In this document: in pieces, positions 13,801 to 31,494 of the stretch | Position numbering within the stretch: position 1 is the first letter of the stretch | Layout: each line of letters starts with the position of its first letter | Assembly: GCA_964106645.2 (NCBI GenBank) | Contig: OZ067051.1 | Length of the DNA: 64,000 nt | Direction: 5' to 3' (one strand) | DNA from: Podarcis pityusensis | Taxonomy: Eukaryota | Translations under genes and position numbers: made by a program | Notes under the pieces: model-generated | Told to the model about the DNA's origin: nothing | Database searches by the model: none | The model's input: the letters and a program-made list of their open reading frames with translations, nothing else

Positions 13801-16800
13801 CATTGACAAGCAAAGATATAATGTAAGACAACTGGTCAGTTCAGGAGGCTGTTGGCAACTTATGGACACATACACACAGCTTGGACAGCAGCAGATATGA
13901 ACATATGTTTTTAAAGATGATCATTAAATGTTGCTTTTAATGAAACACCTCAAAACACGCTGATGATATCGTAATAGGGTAATGTATTTATATTCATTTG
14001 AATGCTGCCTGCAGTTGCTTCGAAGCACAGGTTAATAGAGGTCTAAAGGTTACCCTACATACATGCTTTTACAAATGAGTTAAAGACATTCTGTCTCCGC
14101 TTCCTTGTCACTGCCTGCAACACTGCTGTCTGTGGATGCTGTGACATCTTCATTGGTACCCTCGCCATTATCTCCTCTCTCAGCTGCTTCACCCTTTGGG
14201 CCACCCTCAGATGCACTGAACGCCTTCTGGGAGCTGGACAAATGTTTCCGAAGAATCTGCGTCAGATGCTGTTTTTGGCATTTCTGTATTTGGATCACCC
14301 AAAAACTTTTGCCAACCCTTCAGTCTCTCTTCCCTTTCTCTTAAAGTCTCCTTGACGTGATAATCTGTTACACCATCTCATGTCTCCACAGAGAGCTGAC
14401 GTCCACCAAACCATCTCCCGTTGAGTGCATCTTCTTCTTCTGCTTCTTTAAATGACACAGAAGCAACACCACCTGGGTGCCTATCAAATAAAATTACTTT
14501 CTTTACTTGTCCAAACTTTTCACATTCTGTCCGAAGATCTTCTCTTATCTCATTTAGCACTAAAGGATCTTCCTCAAAATCGCTTGGGTGGAACATGTTC
14601 CTGATAATGATAACACACTCGTGCTGCATTCGAACACTGCCATCTTTCTTCTCCGGTCTCCAATCCAGAAGTTTTTGTTGTTGAGACAGCTTCTTCTTGT
14701 AGTCTTTGCATTTCTTTTTCTTCTTGCTGGCATCGTACTCCCCCTTTGGTTGAAACTGTGCAACTTCCACATGCAATTTGTAGCCTCTAATTTCATTTTC
14801 ATCCAATAGTTTGAATGCTAGTTCAACAGATTCTCTCTTTAAGTAGCAGCAGAGCCCATCTCCTTTCAGATTTCCTTCTTTGTCTTTGTAAAGTTTAATT
14901 TTAGGCTCCTCTGTTTGTGGATCACGCATAACATTACCACATTTTGACATAACCTGCACGAACTCATCTTTTGTAATGTCTGGTGGTAAACCTGTCACAT
15001 ATACATTTGTGTTTCTCTGTTCTTCAACATGAAACCATCCTGCGTCAGGTTTTATTCTCTCTCCTTTTGGTTTAAGATCCGTTGCCTGAGATGCTTTTGG
15101 ACCTGTTGCCTGCTGGACCTGGGTAGCCTTTGAATCTGTAGGTGTTTTAGATTCAGTCTTTCTAAGAGATGCAGATGAGCTATCTGAAATTTCAGTGGGA
15201 AAGCCGTAGTTAGCATGATATGTTGCCAGGAAATCTTCAGTAACCTTTGGGAACCAGGCCTTCTTGTCGGGATCCCACTCGTACTGCGTCCCGTCCGCCA
15301 GGTCCGTGTACGTGAAAGGGTCCTCGCCGCCGTCCGCGCCCTCCTTGCCGTACAGCTCCTGCAGCCGCAGCTGCTGGTAGAACAACTCGTTCCGATCCGA
15401 GCCGCCAATACTCATGTTGCGGCCGGAGCCCAGGCTGACGAGGCAGGAAACGCGGGGCGACTCAGCAGCGCCTCACAAGCTAGGCCGCGCCTCAGGCGCC
15501 GCCGCCGCCAACTACTCGGGAGCCGCCAGACTGCACGAAGCCGCTCCGGGCTCCTGAGCGCGGGTCTCGCGCCACGGTTGCCCCAATTGGGGTCCTCTTG
15601 AGCATCATGGCTGCAGCTGGGGGACTTTCCTGGCTCACGGAGGGAGCAACCATGGCCGTCCCACACTGAGCAGGGGCATCTTTGGTGTTCGCAGGGACTG
15701 CGGAGAAGGCGGCAACTGCTCCTTCACTTCCAATGGTGCTGCCGCCGCCGCCGCCGCCCGATTCACCTGCTTTGCAGAGCAAAGTATCTGCTTTGGGAAC
15801 AACAACTTTGAGGTGGTCGTGAAGCTGGGGGATGAGCAACAGCAAGTGTGTAAGAACGAGTTTGTCTTCCAAGAACACTGTAAGTATGGAGGGGGGGTAG
15901 GACTCTGTGTCCGTCTGGACACGTGAGTGGGACTGGGAGGAGGAGGACACACGCAAGGGCTGCTGAGAAAGGGGCTTGTTGCAGCCGGGCTCAGAGACCC
16001 TTCCTCACTTACGGGTGTGGTGGTGGCATTTTTTAAGATTTGGGTTTGTTTACAAGTATGAAGGCAAGGAGTTTTCAAGCTCCTACAGCCAGCTAACCTT
16101 GGGCTGCTTAAACAACCTGGGGCTTTTAAAATGTTTCGACGGGGTTATTCTCCATCTCCACCCCGCCCCCAGCCATTATGTATTTTGTGTTTTTCTGTTG
16201 TAAACTGCCCTGGAATCTTCGGATGGAGGAATGAATGAATGAATGAATATGAATGTGAATGTGAATGAATAACCCACTGCCTTTCATTCAAGCCCAGCAG
16301 CCCCAGATGCTTTCACCTTGCTCCACTTGGAGGCTGGAGGGACATTGCAGGGGCTTCCCCACACAAGTACCCCCTGGGGATTTGGGGGTGTCACTGCTGC
16401 TTCACCCAGTGGGTGGGGGCCAAGTCCTGTCAGCCAGATGCCCTCAGGAGCCCACTTTGACTCTTTCCACAGTTAAGCCATCCCCGCCGTTCAGCCTGAG
16501 GGCTATTGTCTCCCCTGAGGGCTACAACCTCTCCTGGAGCACCATGTACCAGCAAGATGAGTACTTCTACCTGGACACGGAGCTGCAGTATGAGTTGCGC
16601 TACCGGCAGAGGGGACATCCATGGCAGGTAAGCCAGGAGGCAGGGCCAGCCTGAGCTGGATGGCGGCAGGCACCATTTGCCCAGTCAGGCCCTCAGTGGC
16701 TGGCTGGCCACCCTGGAGCTCAGCCCCAAAGTTGCTTCTCTGGACTTGGGCTTCAGGGGCACTGGGAAGTCATGGGGCTCTTTCAGGATCATTTGAGTAA

Positions 16801-21406: not shown

Positions 21407-22541
21407 TACACACAAATACAATAATACATACATCAACAATACAAAATTATACACATTCAAAACATTCCAGCAGTATTACGAACCAAACACATTAGTGTTT
21501 CTACAAAAAAAATTAAGACAAAAATGCCCAAGCAGCATCTTCACTTTAAAAGTATCCCAGGGTGGGGCAAGGCAGGTGGAAAAAGCTGAGGCCCCTAGAT
21601 GGTCCCAGCAGCCTCTCCCCTGGAGCCTCTTCAGATGCCTGTTGCCAAGGGAAACCTTCAAGACAATATAGTCTGAAGGCAGTTCCAAAGCGAAGGGACC
21701 ACTGGATCAAGCTTTTCCTGGGTGCCCTGGAGTGGCCCAGTGAGCCCAGCTCCTTCCAAGCATCACTTGGCCCCCCAACCACAACATAATTTCCACTCTC
21801 CCTCTGCTGGCCATCTTCTTTCCCCTCGGAAGGGCTTGGCTGCCTGGGCCTAAAGTTCCTCCAGGAGGCAGAAGCAGTCAAGAAATCCCCTGCTGCTGAG
21901 CTGGGCTGCAGTCTCTGCTGCACTGGTCTTTCCCAGCCTGGCAGAGCAGGATCCTTTCACTGGGGACTGATGTCCACAGCCTTGCCTCAAGCCACCTGCC
22001 ATCCCCCACTGGCCTGGACTAACACTTGTCTGTAGAGGCCGCCTGACGCAGCCTCCCCACCCCTGTTGCCAGAGAAAAGGCAGGGGCCCTTTCCTGCCCC
22101 AACACCTCCCTCCCTGGCATACACCCAAGGTCATCTTTCTTCATCCTGAAAGACTCTCCTGCCTTGGGAGGATGCAAGAGGCGCATCCTACTTGGAACTG
22201 TTATGGATGAGCCATCAGAGGAAGTGTCTGGAGCAGAGGAGCTGGACACTGCTGGGCTCTGCTCCAGAAGAGAGGGGTGGATTTGCAAACCGGTATCCCT
22301 TCCAGGGCACCTGGGCTGCAGGTGTTTCAGGGGAAGCAGTCCCTGTTGGGTTCTGGTCACCCCATGGACCTATAGCTAACAAGGAAGAGTTGATTTAACA
22401 GGGCAGCCCGACAGGGAACCTTGTGTGTGTGCTGCAAAAACACAGGGTCCCTGCAGGACAAGAGGATGCCCAGGCAGCTGCACTTGCCAGTTCAACGGTT
22501 GCAGCTGCGCAGCTTCAGCTGTCTGTCTGTGAGCTTTCCTC

Positions 22542-22583
22542 CCTTCCTTCCTTCCTTCCTTCCTTCCTTCCTTCCTTCCTTCC
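22542..22583. repeat. (CCTT)n microsatellite
   Basis: About 10 tandem units. Confidence 0.95.
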
Positions 22584-23842
22584 CTGAGAGACCCTTTGCC
22601 TAGCCACAACCCCTTTGGGCTACTTCTTTTCCACCTGACTGGGTGGAATTTAGACACATTTTAAAAAACACAGTGAAAATGCTTTTTTGAAAAAGCGTTT
22701 TGAAAAATATATTCAATCTGCCATAAGCTCATCTAGTGTAAAATTTGTATAATGCACTTCAAATACACTTAAAACATTATATTTGCAGCTATACAGCCGA
22801 GTCCTGGAGTCTTCACTGGTGCTCTTTCTCCCTTTCCAGGCTGCAAGGATGGCTCTGGATGGCTCCCTCCTTTCTCCAGGGAGACAGCCTTCCACTGTGG
22901 GCATGACCGGCCCAATATGTTCAACTGCCTGCCTGTGGCAAAGAAGGAAAGATGGAACGCCCCCCCCATCCCATGTACAGAAGACGACTGGACTGGCAGC
23001 TGACTCTTAATTCAGCCTTCCACACCATACTTGACACAGCAGACCAGATCCAATTTTCTGGACAAGTCACGCAGCAACAGGGGAATGGCTTGGAGGAGGG
23101 AGGAGGGCTTTAGATGAAAATGTGGGGGCTGCTGCCCCACCCCAGCATCTGCCACCTGAGGCAATTGCCTCAGTTTGCTTAATGGTTGGGCCAGCCCTGT
23201 TTTGGGATCAGAACCACAGGTGTCTCCACAACCTCCTTACATGAGGTAGCAAAAATGTAGGGCAAAAAACAAGGCTCAGGCAGGTTTCAGGGCACATGGC
23301 TCATGCCTGGGGACCCACAGGGTTAATGCCTCAAAACCCCTCAAAATCGGTTTGACAATCTCCATAGCCTGCCAAACTTATCGCCAACATCTGCCTCAAT
23401 AGAAAAGACACCTCCTCCTGCCTGGTAAACAAACTGTTCTTTCTAAACAGCCCAGGGGCCAAGACGGAGCAAATTGCCACTGGAGCAGCTCCAGGAGAAG
23501 AAGAGCCACAGAGTCCATCTGCAGCCACAGAGTCCTGCCATTGCTTTCGGAACTGCTTTTCTGCCTCCCACGAAATCCATCCATAGAGAGAGACCCCAAA
23601 GGAGCTCCGGGTAAGAGTCACATTGGGTCTGGTCAAGGCACAGAGGAGAGCAGATATAATTTATAATTTATATAATAGTTGTGATCAATGGGGCTTCCTT
23701 TCATGTTAGCGTCCAGGAGATTTCAGCCTGGGTGGTATAAGAATTCCCCCCCCCCCAATTACTGGGAGTCCTTTGGGTCCTTTTGAGGCTCTGTTACAGG
23801 GCAGACAGAGATGCAATTATAACATATATATATATATAATTA

Positions 23843-23995
23843 CTGTACTTTTCTGTGTGTAAGACTAGGTTTTTTTTTTACTTTAAAATAAGGTTAAAAA
23901 TCTGGGGGCATCTTATACATGGATAGTGCATATGCCCATTTTCTAAATTTGGGGTCCCCAAAAGTTGGGGATGTCTTATACATGGAAAAATACGG
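23843..23995. mobile_element. Tc2/pogo-like MITE (related fragment near 47992-48150)
   Basis: ta|ctgtacttttctgtgtgtaagac ... gtcttatacatggaaaaatacgg|ta. Confidence 0.7.
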
Positions 23996-24388
23996 TATAT
24001 TATATCAAATATATAATATAGATAGATGTAGATATACAGCAAGTCCCCATCACAACTGAGATGGCTGTAGCTGTTAAGGAATGTTCTATAAGATGGGGGG
24101 GGGGAGTTCTGCATCCCCCCATGTTCACCACTGTCCTGCATAACACACAGTAACAACAGCCTTCCGTGGGAACAAGGCAGGTGAAACAGCTCTTCTGAAT
24201 CCATCCTGTCTCCCTCTCTGGGGCTTGGCATGCCATGTGCAGGATGAGCTTCCTGGCCCCATTGCTACAGAGAGTCCTTAGTGCCTCGCCATCAGAAGTC
24301 ACTTTCCATCTGCAAGAAGAGGAGCTGGCTTAGCAGTGGCTTGACAGGGCCCCTTCTGTCCTTCTGTTTTCTAGGAGTCCTTCTGGCC

Positions 24389-24470
24389 ATGGGGGATGGC
24401 TGTCGGACCACCTGCCTGTTGCAGGTGCTCCTCCTCCCTCTCTTTGCGGCTGAGGAAATGCAGCAAACAG
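24389..24470 (+). CDS. IL9R: IL9R coding exon 1, signal peptide
   Basis: Kozak gccATGg; MGDGCRTTCLLQVLLLPLFAAEEMQQT|gtaggt; acceptor at 24374. Confidence 0.75.
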
Positions 24471-27400
24471 GTAGGTGGGGGGGGCGGTTCTTGGCCACCA
24501 AATGGACCCACAGAGAATGGGATGTACGTCTGAGGACCTGTGACCAGAGCGGAGCCCAAGAGGCACCACAAGGTCTCTCAGGACATCTCCTGCTCTCAGT
24601 GCTTGTGAATGTGTTAGGGTTTAACTTAAAAGCAGTTGGAGTGGGGGGCAGAGGTTCAATTTTGTCCAGAAAAGCAGCGTTGAAGGAGGGGGTAGTGTCT
24701 TTAATTCTCCACCTCAACAGGCCATTTTCCAGATTAAAATGCTGCTGTTCACCCTATTGTGGGTCAGGGAGACATATCCAGACCCATCTCTGGGCTTCTT
24801 TTCTGGCTTTGGCCCCTTTGAGAAAGGGGGACGTTCCCTAGGGTCTTTGCTGTTTTCTTTACAGAGTCCCCTTTCTACATTTGTTTAGATTTTTGATGTA
24901 ATACAGTGGTACCTCGGGTTACATATGCTTCAGGTTACATATGCTTCAGGTTACAGACTCCGCTAACCCAGAAATAGTGCTTCAGGTTAAGAACTTTGCT
25001 TCAGGATGAGAACAGAAATCGTGCTCCGGCGGCGCGGCGGCAGCGGGAGGCCCCATTAGCTAAAGTGGTGCTTCAGGTTAAGAACAGTTTCAGGTTAAGA
25101 ACAGACCTCCAGAACGAATTAAGTTCTTAACCCGAGGTACCACTATATATGTATTCCACCTTTCCAACCACATGTGTTGAGCTCAAAGTGACTCACAATA
25201 ATACCAGTTAAGAAACAACAAACAATGCAATCACTGTACAGTCAAAGCTCTGTTGTTGAACGTAATCCGTTCTGGAAGACAGTTCGACTTCTGAAATGTT
25301 CGACAACTGAGGATCAAAGGGTGGTTAGCAAAGTCAATGGAGAAAAAAGAACAAAACTCCCCAGAAGCTGTTTGGCTTTCTAAAATCGTTTGAAACCGGA
25401 GCAGTTACTTCCAGGTTTTCAGCATTCGGGAGCTGAAACGTACAATAACGGAGGCGTTCAGGAACCAAGGTTTGGCTGTAATATCAAACACAGTAGCGTA
25501 TGACAAAACAAATTCATCAAGATGATTTAATAAAGTAATTCAAAATATCAGAAAGAGCTGCTGAGCACCAGCCCTGTACTAGATGACACCCTCTCTCTGA
25601 GAAAGGGCTTTTTCTTCATCCAGTGCAGTGGACAGGGCATGCTCAGACACAGGTGAGAAGCAGGAGGTTGCAGAAGAAAACACAAGGGCATAGCAGCTTG
25701 TCCACTGAAATCCCCAAATCAGATCTCTCCTCCAGAAACCTCCCAGCAACCCAGAGGGGCAGATTGCTCCTTTCATCTTCTGCTCAAGGCAGCAATGCTT
25801 CTTAATGCCAGCTGCTGGAAACCACAGTTTGGAGGAGTGCTGCTTATGGGCTTCTTCGCTTTGGAGCATTTAGTTGGCCACTGTGAGAACCAGAGGCTGA
25901 ACTAGATGAACCACTGGCTTCATCCAGCTGCAGGGCTCACTTTGTGTTCTTATGCTCTTGTCCCCAAAGCATCTGCAACCTCTTCTCTTCTTCCCAGTGC
26001 CACCTCATGGCACAATTGGAATAAACACAAGCCAAAGTTCAGGAGGGAGGGCGGGAGTGGTGCTGGACTGATGAAGGTGCGGCTGGCTTCTAACGGTGCC
26101 ATTTCCCCCCTTTTCTCTGTCTCCTGGCAGGGCTCTCCAACAACAGTGTGCGGTGCCTGAACAATTATGGGTCGCAGGGCCGCAGGGTGAACTGCACATG
26201 GCACCGCCGTGACACGATCCTGGGAGAAGGACCCTTCCACCTCAATTTCTCTGAGTAAGGGCAGGGACACCAAGCCCTGGTCCCTGCTGGGGTGACTGAG
26301 GGCTGGCAGGAGCCAGGTTTCTTGCAGGGTGGCTCTGGGTTCCCGGGCAGTGTATCTCTCATTTGTGGTTGCAAGCTGTGGGGAAAAGGAGATGCCTGCA
26401 CAGTCCAGGGGATGTTGGTGATTGATGGGTTTCAGGAGCCAGAGAGCAGACTTCCTAGGACTTTGGCTAGAGCACAAGGGGCAAAAAGCAACAGCCACAG
26501 CAGGGTATATCTTCTTGGGAGAAAATGCCCATGGTGCTAGGCACAACCACAGAGTCAAAGGCTGCTCTGCCCAATACCACGCCCATCCCAGCCCCCAGAG
26601 GTTTGTCTGAGTCCCTTCCCTGGTGGCACCTCCGGGCAATCCTTAATTTCTCCAAGGTGCACCTTTAGATTTTCAGGTTGCATGGAAACAAATCCCTGTC
26701 CCTCCCTCCTTTCATCCCTTTCGGACACACAGTTAGACACTTCGGTCAGGAAGTTCAGGTATGTGAGTGTTGTGATAGGAGTTACTCTCCATATGCTCAG
26801 AGGCACTCTCTCCTTCCTCTTATGGCAACCGGCCACATTCCCCCAGCCATGCTTCATGCTGGGCGGCCACCCCAAGGAAGGACCTTCTTCCTCCTCTCCT
26901 CTGTTTTGCAGCCTCCTTGGTCTCAACAGTGACCTCATCTGCCATCTCTCTGAGGAGGCCCTGGACCAGTTCAGCTGCTCTGTGAATAGTGAAGAGGGCG
27001 AGTTCACAGAGAACGATGAGTACAGCGTCTCCTTGTATGCCTCCTCCTCCTCCGGAAACGGACTCATCGTCTTTGCGATGTATGAGCCCAGGCTGCACAG
27101 TGAGTCTTCTTGCATGTGGAAGGACTGACTCAAACTTCTCCAGGACGGAAGAGTGGCCATGGTTGGAGGCAAGGGTCCTTGTGTCCTCCAGCTGTTGGGG
27201 ACAGTCTGTTTGCCCCCAGCCTTTTCCCTCCCCTTCACCTCTCTTTCTGAGCTTTTTCCAGCCCTGGACATCCTGGTGAGCCCTGCTGAGTTCTCCCTGA
27301 GCAGCAGCAGCTCCTTGGAGGATGTCCCAGGAGTGCGCACATACACACTGTGTTGCTTTTGGGTGGGTGGGGGTCTTCTTGGCTCCCAGTAGCACCTCCT

Positions 27401-30400
27401 CTCCGCTCTCTATCTCTTTCCAGTCAAATGTGAGCCACCGTTTGACCTGCAGAGCAACATGAGTTCCAGCAAGTGCTGGATGCAGTGGAGGAGGCCAGAG
27501 GCCTATGAAGACATTTTCCTGGACGACTGGCAATGGGAACTGGCATTCAAGACCACAGAAGCACCCTGGGAGGTAAGAGGCCACTGAAATGGGCTGAAAG
27601 TGGGAGGCATTTCACCACCTCTTGCCTTCTCAAGGATCACAATGCCCTGGAGGATAGGAGACAGGAGGGCTCTTGGCTGACACACAGCACAGAGACGTCT
27701 GGTCAAGGTTTGCACACTGACGGGGATGGCAAATGGCTGAGCAGCAGGGATATCTACAACTGAGAAAATAGGGTTGTATGGAAGCACAAGCAAACGTTGA
27801 GTCTGAACAAGCTGTTAGCGGCATAAGGTCTCCACCCGGAAGCCCCCATCTCCTTCTGGCATTTGCTATGACTTACAGGGCCTGCCCAACTGAATTCTGT
27901 CTAATGGGATCATTGCTTGTGCTCCGATCCTTCACAGCAGAAACAGAACAAGGTCTGGGTCAACAAAGAAATGCGGGTGGCGGGTGGCACTGTGGGTTAA
28001 ACCACAGAGCCTAGGGTTGTTCGGTCCCTGCTCTTGCCAACCTAGCAGTTTGAAAGCACATCAAAGTGCAAGTAGATAAATAGGTACCACTCTGGTGGGA
28101 AGGTAAACGGCATTTCCGTGCGCTGCTCTGGTTCGCCAGAAGCGGCTTAGTCATGCTGGCCACATGACCTGGAAGCTGTACGCTGGCTCCCTCAGCCAGT
28201 AAAGCGAGATGAGCACCGCAACCCCAGAGTCGTCCACAACTGGACCTAATGGTCAGGGCTCCCTTTACCTTTTACAGGGCCTGTCCAACTGAATTCTGTC
28301 TAATGGGATCATTGCTTGTGCTCCAATCCTTCACAGCAGGCACAGAACAAGGTCTGGGTTAATAAAGAAACATGGGTGGAAATTGAGGGCTTCGAGTTCG
28401 AGTCTGGCGTAGAGTACGTGGCAAGAATTCGCTGCAAAACTCCAGATGTGAATATGCACTACAGAAGCCAGTGGAGTCCATGGAGCGCCACCACCAAGTG
28501 GAAAGCCCCCCCAGGTCTGGTACAAAGCTGTGCTGCATTTGATGTGCCACACACCCAGGTCCACACACATACAAATTCCACTTCTCTTGCTTGCACTCAT
28601 TTGTGTCATAGGTTTTGTTTTTCTTAAGCTCAAAGGAAATTACAACTCACAAAACAAAGCCCCCCCCCCCCCATTTGAAAAAACAGGGTCACATCTCTTG
28701 GGGGGGAAGGTCTTTGGTGTTTCTCAGAACTAGTCAGGTGAGCTTCTCAAGGGACAGATTTTTAAAATCTGCCTTCCCGGGCAAGACACAGACTCTCTGT
28801 GGCTACCAGTTTCATCCCCCAAAGATTTATTTAGTATTTTACTGGAGCTGAATATATCCCACACACCACACAGGCTGAATAAGCTCTTGGTGAAATGTGT
28901 GTCTGCTTGTTTGCCATTTCAAAGTGAAACCTACAAAAAGGCAACTGTGCTCATTCCTTCGGTTGCCAGCTCCTTTTCTGGCAAACCGAGGGCAATCCTC
29001 CACTGTACTGATGATTCTATCCACAGGCAACGGGCAGCAGCAACATCGGGAGTCCCACCTCCTGAAGCATGTGTTCAATCTGCTCTTTCTCTGCCTGGGC
29101 ATCCTGCTGTTCCTGCTCCTGGTACTCACAATCTTCTGGAGGTATATCACTCACTCATTCATTCATTCATTTCGCCTGGAGATGTTGCATACAGACAGCC
29201 AGGAGGGCCCAGGCACCAGTATTTGTGTTTTGCTCATCACATGAGGTCAGAGAAGGAGTTGGGGTCTCTGGCCCAGGCTTTGCTACCCTGAGTTGCAGTC
29301 CCTGGTGCCCACACAATGTGCCTAGTGCATGCACAAGCACAGAAAACAGAGACAAAGGAAAGGGAGGCTTTTGTGGTTCCCACAGCAGGAAAGGGGTATC
29401 TGTCGCATAAAAGGCACACAGAGTACAGTATATCTATCTCCTTCTGCCCTGCCCTGAAGTGGGATTGGGTGTGGCTGATGCTCAGCCTTTTGTGTGCATG
29501 GAGGCACCAATTCCTTCAGTTGCGTGAACGCCTGCCCTTCTAGGGCATTTGCATACAACCAGACTCTACTCTCCAGCTCTAAATTGGCCCAGCAGGTGGG
29601 CAGGAGTTTGCCTGTGCTTTCTCTTTTCCTCACTGGGGTTGACATGCACCAAGGAGGTGGAATAGGGGCAGAAGGAGGAGACAATTATTTGTACACCACC
29701 AGCATCCAGGAAGATGGACTGTGGGAGGCTGGAAGAAGAGAAGGGGTATTTTCCCATGGGCTGTGGTTCTCTCTTTCCACAGGTCCAAGGGCCATTGCAG
29801 CGCAAACATCCCCAGCCCAGCGGCTTATTTCCAGCCCCTTTATCTCTCACACAGTGGGGATTTCAAGGTAACAACCATGATCTCAGGAGCAGTCAGATAG
29901 AACCTGATGATGGCTGAGTACCAAGCCAGGGAGGGTGGGGTGTAATTCTCAGGCTGCCATGGAGAAGTGGGCCTCCCATCCTTTCAGAAGAGAAGGGGGT
30001 TTCAGCTGCAGAGATGGCTTCCTGGGCAAGGTTTTGGTATTGTCGTCTGGGAGTCTTCCTGGTCCCTCTCTGGTAGTGGTGGCAGATGTGGGTGTCAGGC
30101 TGGCAGCTTTGTGGCCTAGGCAGGACCTGGCCTCCTCACCTGAAGGCAGGTTGTAAACTGCTTGGAGAATTCTTTGGAATAATAATAATAGTAACAATAA
30201 TAATTTTATTATTTGTACCCCACCCATCTGAATGGGTTGCCCCAGCCAGTCTGAGTGGCTTCCAGCATATATAAAAACATAATAAAACATTAAACATTAA
30301 AAACTTCCCTATGCAGGGCTGCTTTCAGATGTCTTCTAAAGGTTTTATAGTTACTTACTGTATCTCCTTGACATCTGGTGGGAGGGCGTTCCACAGGGTG

Positions 30401-31494
30401 GATGCCACTACTGAGAAAGCCTTTCCTTGTTCCCTATAACCTCACTTCTCGCAGTGAGGGAACCGCCGAAGGCCCTCAGCGCTAGATTTCAGTGTCCAGG
30501 CTGAACAATGGGAGTGGAGACACTCCTTCAGGTACAGAGGGCCAAGGCCGCTTAGAGCTTTAAAGGTCAGCACCAGCACTTTGATTTTTGTTTGAAAACG
30601 TACTGGGAGCCAATGTAGGTATTTCAGGATCAGTGCGTATAGTCCCAGCGGCCGCTCCTGGTCACCAGTCCAGCTGCTGCATTCTGGATTAGTTGTAGTT
30701 TCCGAAATGTAGTTTTGGAAATCTGAAGCAGCGCACAAATCATGTAAATAAAAGAAACTAATCTCAACCAACCAAGTTCTCCAGGTGTCTAGGGATGAAT
30801 ATACACACACACCCTGCAAGTAGCAGGAAGCCCAAAAAGAGGTGCACACTGACTCTAGCAGTAGCCGAGGGGGCAGCAGGATCATGCCCATGCTGGCTTC
30901 CGGCATGGAAAGCCATTCCAGGTGGGGAACCTGAGGCTATTTTCTGCTCTCTTCCAGCGCTGGGCTGGCCTGGCAGAAAAGACCGGTAGCAACGAGGACA
31001 AGGAGATGCCCTGGGACCACAGCAAGGGGGGCGAGGAGGATAAAGCCCCCCCAGCAGGCATTTCCCGGCTTTCCTTCTGCCAGCCGCTGCCAGAGGATGA
31101 GGCCCTGTCCAAAGAGAGCAGTTGCCCCCCGCCTGAGATGCCAGACTATCAACATATGGCCAGCAAACAGAGAGGCCTCGAGGAAGACCTGAAACAGCCA
31201 CAGCCTGAAGCAGAGGCACCCCTTCCCTCTGGGGAAACAGAGCAGGAGAGCTCTTCTTCTTTGCCATGCGAGTGGGGCTTCGCCTTCCAAGAACAGGGCT
31301 CACTGGAGACGGAGACACCTGCCCTCCTCCTCCTCTTTGGCAGCAATGATTACTGCGCCTTGGGAGGTGACCACAGCCAGCCAGGCTCCAGGCCTGCTGC
31401 TGAGCAGCTGCTGCAAAGCATCTCAGCATGGGGGCCGGGCCAGGCTGCAAAGGACTCCCCCCAGGCTGTTCTGGGCCCCACTAGCCATGTCTGA
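24389..31494 (+). CDS. IL9R: Interleukin-9 receptor, 485 aa: join(24389..24470,26131..26254,26912..27099,27424..27572,28337..28514,29027..29141,29783..29867,30958..31494)
   Basis: Phases are compatible (1458 nt). PPFDLQSNMSS (human PPSDLQSNISS), ELAFK...PWEQAQ (human ELAFK...AWEQAQ), QWSPWS, Box1 NIPSPAAYFQPLY, NDYCALG (human NNYCALG). Confidence 0.9.
24904..25145. mobile_element. Tc1/mariner (Tigger-like) MITE, 242 bp
   Basis: ta|cagtggtacctcgggtta ... taacccgaggtaccacta|ta; internal repeats of gcttcaggtta. Confidence 0.88.
25239..25478. mobile_element. Tc1/mariner MITE, 240 bp
   Basis: ta|cagtcaaagctctgtt ... aaccaaggtttggctg|ta. Confidence 0.75.
25780..25955 (+). mobile_element. CR1 3'-end fragment (similar pieces near 34140-34310 + and 61910-62250 -)
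   Basis: gttggccactgtgagaac...ctagatg...catccagc...gttcttatg. Confidence 0.65.
26131..26254 (+). CDS. IL9R: IL9R coding exon 2
   Basis: LSNNSVRCLNNYGSQGRRVNCTWHRRDTILGEGPFHLNFS|gtaagg (C...CxW motif). Confidence 0.88.
26912..27099 (+). CDS. IL9R: IL9R coding exon 3
   Basis: LLGLNSDLICHLSEEALDQFSCSV...FTENDEYSVSL...YEPRLH|gtgagt. Confidence 0.88.
27424..27572 (+). CDS. IL9R: IL9R coding exon 4
   Basis: (I)KCEPPFDLQSNMSSSKCWMQW...WELAFKTTEAPWE|gtaaga. Confidence 0.92.
27981..28271 (+). mobile_element. Sauria SINE flanked by a 108-bp direct duplication (27873-27980 / 28272-28379)
   Basis: cgggtggcactgtgggttaaaccacagagcctagg...gtgcaagtagataaataggtacc...ggacctaatggtcaggg..ccctttacct tail. Confidence 0.88.
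28337..28514 (+). CDS. IL9R: IL9R coding exon 5 (WSXWS)
   Basis: NAGNAG acceptor; QAQNKVWVNKETWVEIEGFEFESGVEYVARIRCKTPDVNMHYRSQWSPWSATTKWKAPP; weak but phase-correct donor gtctgg. Confidence 0.88.
29027..29141 (+). CDS. IL9R: IL9R coding exon 6 (transmembrane)
   Basis: NGQQQHRESHLLKHVFNLLFLCLGILLFLLLVLTIFW(R)|gtatat. Confidence 0.88.
29783..29867 (+). CDS. IL9R: IL9R coding exon 7 (Box1)
   Basis: SKGHCSANIPSPAAYFQPLYLSHSGDFK|gtaaca. Confidence 0.92.
30178..30710 (-). mobile_element. L2-clade LINE 3' fragment
   Basis: Minus strand reads LKYLHWLPVRFQTKIKVLVLTFKALSGLGPLYLKE; AT-rich tail near 30180-30212. Confidence 0.8.
30958..31494 (+). CDS. IL9R: IL9R terminal coding exon
   Basis: ctcttccag|RWAGLAEK...DYQHM...NDYCALGG...PTSHV*. 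Confidence 0.88.
   Translation, partial: RWAGLAEKTGSNEDKEMPWDHSKGGEEDKAPPAGISRLSFCQPLPEDEALSKESSCPPPEMPDYQHMASKQRGLEEDLKQPQPEAEAPLPSGETEQESSSSLPCEWGFAFQEQGSLETETPALLLLFGSNDYCALGGDHSQPGSRPAAEQLLQSISAWGPGQAAKDSPQAVLGPTSHV

Follow-up and report, generated by a model that had tools for sequence, protein, structure and literature searches.

According to the available text of two surveys (PMC13295347, PMC6007223), insertions of Sauria SINEs and Bov-B elements carry an (ACCTTT)n tail, are flanked by a duplication that starts with T about 10 nt after a TTT, and reach a high copy number in Podarcis. The SINE copy described here, which lies in an IL9R gene, is alike in these respects, but most of the duplications in those sources are no longer than 13 bp, whereas that of the IL9R copy measures about 99 bp. 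Two further differences from other Sauria SINEs are the 7-nt tandem in the head of this copy and the loss of about 50 nt. Duplications far beyond the usual stagger, flanking otherwise normal insertions as at IL9R, are known from L1, where several hundred nucleotides are on record in the accessible part of PMC1291365. The IL9R case differs from these in that the element is a SINE of the RTE system and that a whole splice acceptor and the start of an exon were duplicated. The rotifer element R9 is also said to produce long target-site duplications.

For L1 and Alu, the accessible text of PMC10760644 describes attachment of the 5' end where the target resembles the element, and L1 insertions are known to show microhomology where their 5' ends join the target (same source); the 5' junction in IL9R likewise falls where the two sequences resemble each other. 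Here, however, the match is imperfect, 13 nt long and about 95 nt from the nick, and the SINE is nearly full length. Mobile elements also provide splice signals to their hosts, as in SINE exonisation, poison exons and intron gain of the Introner type, where a splice site comes from the target duplication. The present locus is alike in that a mobile element and a duplicated target supply splice signals and leave the protein intact. It differs from Introner gain in that the insertion and the upstream copy were absorbed into an existing intron and no new intron was formed, and from SINE exonisation in that none was seen at IL9R.

Both Sauria surveys, in the portions available, sought only perfect repeats of 10-49 nt (PMC13295347, PMC6007223), and they are therefore silent on the frequency of long duplications. 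Our search of the open-access literature turned up nothing on this locus or on Sauria SINEs with long duplications, and no report of long duplications for RTE-1 of C. elegans.

The reading that we favour, at a probability of about 0.7, is that a single Bov-B-driven insertion generated an abnormally long target-site duplication, and that the spare upstream acceptor is a likely silent by-product. The locus illustrates clearly, in a single case, one way in which an RTE-system SINE may be attached at its 5' end, and it leads to the prediction that, genome-wide, long duplications end at target sequence resembling the SINE head, which bears on a poorly understood step of non-LTR insertion. It also amounts to a natural tandem-acceptor experiment in which one of two near-identical 3' splice sites is used. 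Were the upstream site a regulated poison exon, the locus would matter more, and the present data give no sign of it.

Identity of the gene and structure of its exons

The window, by which we mean the whole 64,000-nt stretch of DNA analysed, contains downstream of the SINE an exon that is 98% identical to the IL9R-like proteins of Podarcis muralis (P0001) and P. raffonei (P0002), and tblastn maps P0002 exon by exon onto 21599-31488. The closest solved relative of these Podarcis proteins is human IL9R (PDB 7OX5, E 5.9e-22), followed by IL4R (8.9e-4), and this match, together with the exon identity, upholds the assignment of the gene to IL9R in the first-pass annotation. A homologue search with the IL9R-like protein gave 23 squamate proteins including the query, most of them named IL9R-like, and Pfam gave nothing above its curated cut-off for nine proteins or exon pieces.

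Four of the 24 listed sequencing runs were compared with the window (X12, X15, X18 and X20), organisms A, B and C and runs X16, X17 and X19 lying outside the comparison. X12 is a DNA-like run of organism D; X15 (organism D), X18 (E) and X20 (F) are taken by guess to be RNA, with contigs that join at GT..AG exon ends. No run in the list is recorded as RNA; six were guessed to be so, and these three come from among them. The features of the locus are collected in Table 1.

Table 1. Position and basis of the features discussed in the text, in window coordinates.
Feature	Position	Strand	Basis
IL9R exon, first half of the second fibronectin domain	27425..27572	+	tblastn of P0002; spliced contigs in 3/3 RNA-like runs
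Donor GAG/GTAAGA of the 27425..27572 exon	27573	+	
Tn-TA insertion signature, putative first nick, intronic	27862..27875	+	TTT 27862-27864 and TA 27874-27875, 10 nt apart
Upstream duplication copy, 99 bp	27873..27971	+	sequence; seen in DNA of organism D
Branch-like CTAAT within the upstream copy	27901-27905	+	sequence
CAGCAG acceptor of the upstream copy, after a pyrimidine tract	AG 27936-27937, 27939-27940	+	
5' junction, exon into SINE head, in-register 9-of-13 match, 7-nt tandem	27968..27987	+	loose ends; rank 1/600
Putative Sauria SINE (Squam1) copy, ~301 nt, sense to the gene	27972..28272	+	repeat pile-up; loose contig ends
TAA stop, in frame if the upstream acceptor is used	27998..28000	+	sequence
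Cryptic donor-like AAG/GTAAAC inside the SINE	28100..28108	+	6/9 donor-consensus matches
Downstream duplication copy, continuous with the functional exon	28272..28370	+	acceptor 28337 used in X15, X18, X20
Functional WSXWS (WSPWS) exon, 178 nt	28337..28514	+	contigs; aligns to human IL9R, PDB 7OX5
Donor CAG/GTCTGG of the WSXWS exon	28515	+	
Transmembrane exon	29027..29141	+	P0002 mapping; WSXWS-to-transmembrane contig joint

Two minor observations concern the exon borders. At the CAGCAG tandem acceptor of the WSXWS exon (28335-28340) the first AG is used in all three RNA-like runs, which gives the exon a Gln-Ala start, as in most homologues. The intron before the first exon of the second fibronectin domain (27100-27424) is covered by contigs in X15 and X20, and the P. 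muralis model P0001 begins inside it; possibly this intron is commonly retained.

The direct repeat

Between 27873-27980 and 28272-28379, 9 of 108 sites are mismatched, exactly the count that had been given before, and the copies stand 399 bases apart. Among direct repeats of at least 45 nt with copies no more than 6 kb apart, this pair is the only one in the window. Not all of the 108 nt are duplicated host sequence, however: three of the nine mismatches (27972-27974) and the shared GGGTGG are SINE head, which fills the final 9 nt of the upstream copy, in register with a similar stretch of the exon. The duplication proper measures 98-99 bp, with six mismatches; 65 nt of it are intronic and 34 nt exonic. 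Its two copies (27873-27971 and 28272-28370) abut the ends of the SINE exactly.

Both copies contain cacagcag. The claim that each holds the acceptor and about 14 codons of the exon stands as to the acceptor, but the duplicated coding part amounts to 11 codons. If read from its own acceptor, the upstream copy translates as QKQNKVWVNKEMRVAGGTVG followed by the TAA listed in Table 1, and the downstream copy runs on as the intact WSPWS exon, so that the translations proposed earlier were correct. The downstream copy retains the ancestral residues (A in 22, T in 19 and W in 20 of 24 homologues); the K and MR read from the upstream copy are derived.

The SINE copy

Contigs from all four runs stack over 27978-28285 to a summed depth of 10^4 to 10^6, as befits a high-copy repeat, and the element's 3' end reads CCCTTT ACCTTT (28261-28272). 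Copy number and an (ACCTTT)n-type tail thus agree with the view that the repeats flank a Sauria SINE; we assign the family name provisionally, from tail, length and copy number. Full-length, active Sauria copies measure about 360 bp in the available text of PMC10058329, as against about 301 nt here, and the IL9R copy reads as a decayed member: as judged from loose contig ends, about 50 nt present in other copies are missing after 28016, among them a B-box-like motif. Sauria SINEs carry the Pol III boxes A and B. BLASTN found no second copy of the SINE within the window, and Rfam returned only two chance matches, below the gathering score.

At the 5' end, other copies of the SINE leave a loose end GGGAC before 27980 (66, 24 and 23 contigs in X12, X15 and X18), and the head of the IL9R copy holds a 7-nt tandem, CGGGTGG. 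On the simplest reading, host sequence would end at 27971 and be followed by the SINE head, to which the 7-nt tandem was added; this is preferred because the alternative needs three adjacent substitutions. The gggtgg that the junction was said to share with the SINE head is indeed present, but the hexamer belongs to the head itself.

Occurrence in a second organism and age

In organism D, the boundary between upstream copy and SINE head lies within an X12 contig (27896-28006); a second X12 contig begins at 28295. Given an assembly by 31-mers, the contig ends at 27902, 27896 and 28295 would fit an exact repeat of 27873-27925 in this organism. The insertion structure therefore predates the split from organism D. 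X12, from the most distant of the listed organisms with DNA, is the one DNA run compared and carries the insertion; an empty single-copy allele was not seen.

Over two contigs of organism D, 46 of 1448 bases differ from the window (about 3%), which places the split very roughly at 12 My ago at the rate used in PMC13295347, in the text available. The six differences between the 99-bp copies give an equally rough estimate of about 23 My (9-51), and by this approximate clock the duplication would have an age above about 10 million years. At 28360 and 28363, C is common to all four runs and the upstream copy, which makes these two changes recent and places them in the downstream copy of the window. 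X12 also differs from the window by two insertions, one of about 17 nt at 27721-27723 and one of about 13 nt at 29003, the latter just upstream of the acceptor of the transmembrane exon.

Proposed insertion mechanism and alternative origins

The left edge of the duplication is intronic, 65 nt short of the WSXWS exon, and coincides with a Tn-TA motif (Table 1), the published cut-site signature of Bov-B and Sauria SINEs (PMC13295347, PMC6007223), at which the first nick is indicated by the base that opens the 5' repeat (PMC13295347; both sources in their available text). The exact spacing of TTT, 10 nt and TA occurs at 96 of the 2852 TA sites of the window, and at 216 when one base more or less is allowed, a background of 3.4-7.6%. 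At the right edge, exon positions 28367-28379 match the 13-nt SINE head at 9 of 13 sites, including the in-register GGGTGG; this match ranks first among the 600 positions from the repeat start, and 80 of the 63,987 positions in the window score equally well. At the upstream junction (27968-27980), 10 of 13 bases agree with the head. Together, the cut signature on the left and the similarity to the SINE head on the right make it likely that the repeat originated as a long target-site duplication, as the first-pass annotation had proposed.

The following sequence of steps would account for the structure. The endonuclease would nick the intronic Tn-TA site, 65 nt upstream of the WSXWS exon, from which synthesis would be primed on the SINE tail; the cDNA end would then attach within the exon, about 99 nt further downstream, at target sequence similar to the SINE head (9 of 13); and fill-in would duplicate the stretch between nick and joining point. 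This does not sustain the further proposal that the SINE landed in coding sequence and that the duplication rescued the exon, the endonuclease signature being 65 nt inside the intron. With a nick at that place and the usual duplication of no more than 13 bp, the whole SINE would have come to lie in the intron, a little upstream of the branch-like site, so the long duplication copied the acceptor and the exon start before the SINE and repaired no exon that had been hit. RTE-clade elements and their SINEs typically have duplications of 13 bp or less (PMC6007223, in the text available); the 98-99 bp found here lie outside a typical 7-15 bp and are about 8-fold longer than 13 bp.

A history in two steps also deserves to be weighed, in which the SINE inserted into the intron with a short duplication and a template switch from the empty to the filled allele, at the similarity between exon and SINE head, later duplicated the 99 bp. 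Such a history yields a final sequence identical to that of a single insertion; it explains the Tn-TA signature and the in-register head match equally well, does without an over-long duplication where 13 bp or less is typical, and fits the 7-nt tandem at the junction, which template switching could leave. We nevertheless consider it unlikely, as it calls for a coincidence of two rare events at this locus before the insertion had become fixed, whereas microhomology at the 5' junction is already known for LINE insertion itself (PMC10760644, accessible part); organism D, moreover, has the same structure, and its one DNA run shows no intermediate. That the duplication came first and the SINE later settled between its copies, or that the structure arose in assembly, is very improbable. 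While the comparison contains neither an empty nor a duplication-only allele, a later insertion requires the SINE to have hit the repeat boundary exactly, with no duplication of its own, and a chance occurrence (3-8%) of the cut signature at the far left edge; an assembly artefact is excluded by the six differences between the copies and by the junction in the independent DNA run of organism D.

Use of the two acceptors

In X15, X18 and X20, one contig each joins 27572 to 28337 at GT..AG, with a depth of 8.74, 4.3 and 4.8, respectively. Since the joint table gives only part of the joints, use of the upstream acceptor was judged from the depth of bins. In the same order, the depth of the donor bin (6.24, 3.07 and 3.43) and that of the exon-start bin (3.18, 1.56 and 1.75) are exactly what this one contig contributes. 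The bins being fully explained, there is no contig from the donor to the upstream acceptor and none from the SINE into the exon. Use of the upstream acceptor was accordingly seen in none of the three RNA-like runs, whose contigs, at depths of 4.3-8.7, drop rare forms and in which NMD would deplete such a product. Among the RNA-like runs, X15 is the one whose organism (D) is shown to have the duplication; its depth over 27593-27977 is zero. A small depth over 27901-27977 in X18 and X20 (3.35 and 2.22) has no tie to the preceding exon, and is probably overhang from the SINE head. The splicing switch that the first-pass annotation had envisaged is thus not borne out: the junction check gave 27572 to 28337 only, in all three runs, from contigs of low depth.

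The two acceptors differ at two sites between -65 and +3. Structural masking of the upstream one is not supported, local folding at three window sizes giving no consistent difference in accessibility. The upstream acceptor defines an exon of 577 nt and the downstream one an exon of 178 nt, and both introns that flank the WSXWS exon exceed 250 nt. With introns longer than this, cross-exon proximity matters, and the preference for the upstream 3' site is reduced, not reversed, according to the available text of PMC9225289. We infer from the two lengths that exon definition would favour the downstream acceptor and so keep the other silent. Any leak through the upstream AG would reach the stop and be removed by NMD.

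The upstream acceptor and the donor-like site in the SINE, which scores 6 of 9 and thereby equals the true donor of the WSXWS exon, would bound a pseudo-exon of 165 nt (27938-28102) whose stop lies 102 nt before its end. We hold it to be quite improbable that this is a functional poison-exon switch, in which the upstream acceptor, alone or with the donor at 28103, conditionally lowers IL9R through NMD. The acceptor is complete in the window (branch-like site, pyrimidine tract, CAG) and, as judged by contig breaks, in organism D; the donor-like site is as good as the true one, both acceptors are predicted to be equally accessible, and NMD would conceal the form in steady-state contigs. Yet none of the three RNA-like runs shows it, use of the SINE donor at 28103 appears in no contig of the runs compared, and the contig of organism D over the upstream copy differs from the window at 4 of 111 sites, much like the neighbouring intron (18/603 and 28/845), and thus gives no hint of constraint, in a comparison of low power. 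Just as doubtful is the wider proposition that one event built an NMD switch, with a 165-nt poison exon tuning IL9R, and that long homeology-guided duplications make up a hidden class of Bov-B/Sauria insertions. A secreted decoy, that is, a soluble ligand-binding IL9R made from the upstream acceptor, can hardly be credited. The product would indeed be without the transmembrane exon, but it keeps only 11 residues of the WSXWS exon and loses 48 of the second fibronectin domain, including WSXWS itself, and in the class I cytokine receptor family half a fibronectin domain without this motif is unlikely to fold. Its stop would precede the next junction by 102 or 514 nt, so that NMD is predicted, and the two proteins matched by the preceding exon in a weak search (three candidates) are neither of them cut at the WSXWS exon. 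What survives of the truncated, transmembrane-less IL9R suggested earlier is the predicted NMD target; the decoy is unlikely since the early stop predicts NMD and WSXWS is lost. A silent by-product of one long-duplication insertion remains our preferred reading of the upstream acceptor.

Neighbouring frames

Between 435 and 31494 the window carries, in tandem on the + strand, frames like IL4R, IL21R and IL9R, after which come frames like PDPK1 and KCTD5; we take the neighbours of the IL9R gene to be IL4R, IL21R, PDPK1 and KCTD5. On the - strand, between the IL4R and IL21R exons, an intronless, long and intact open frame of 364 aa with an RRM occupies 14381-15472, and is presumably akin to an HTATSF1 retrocopy.
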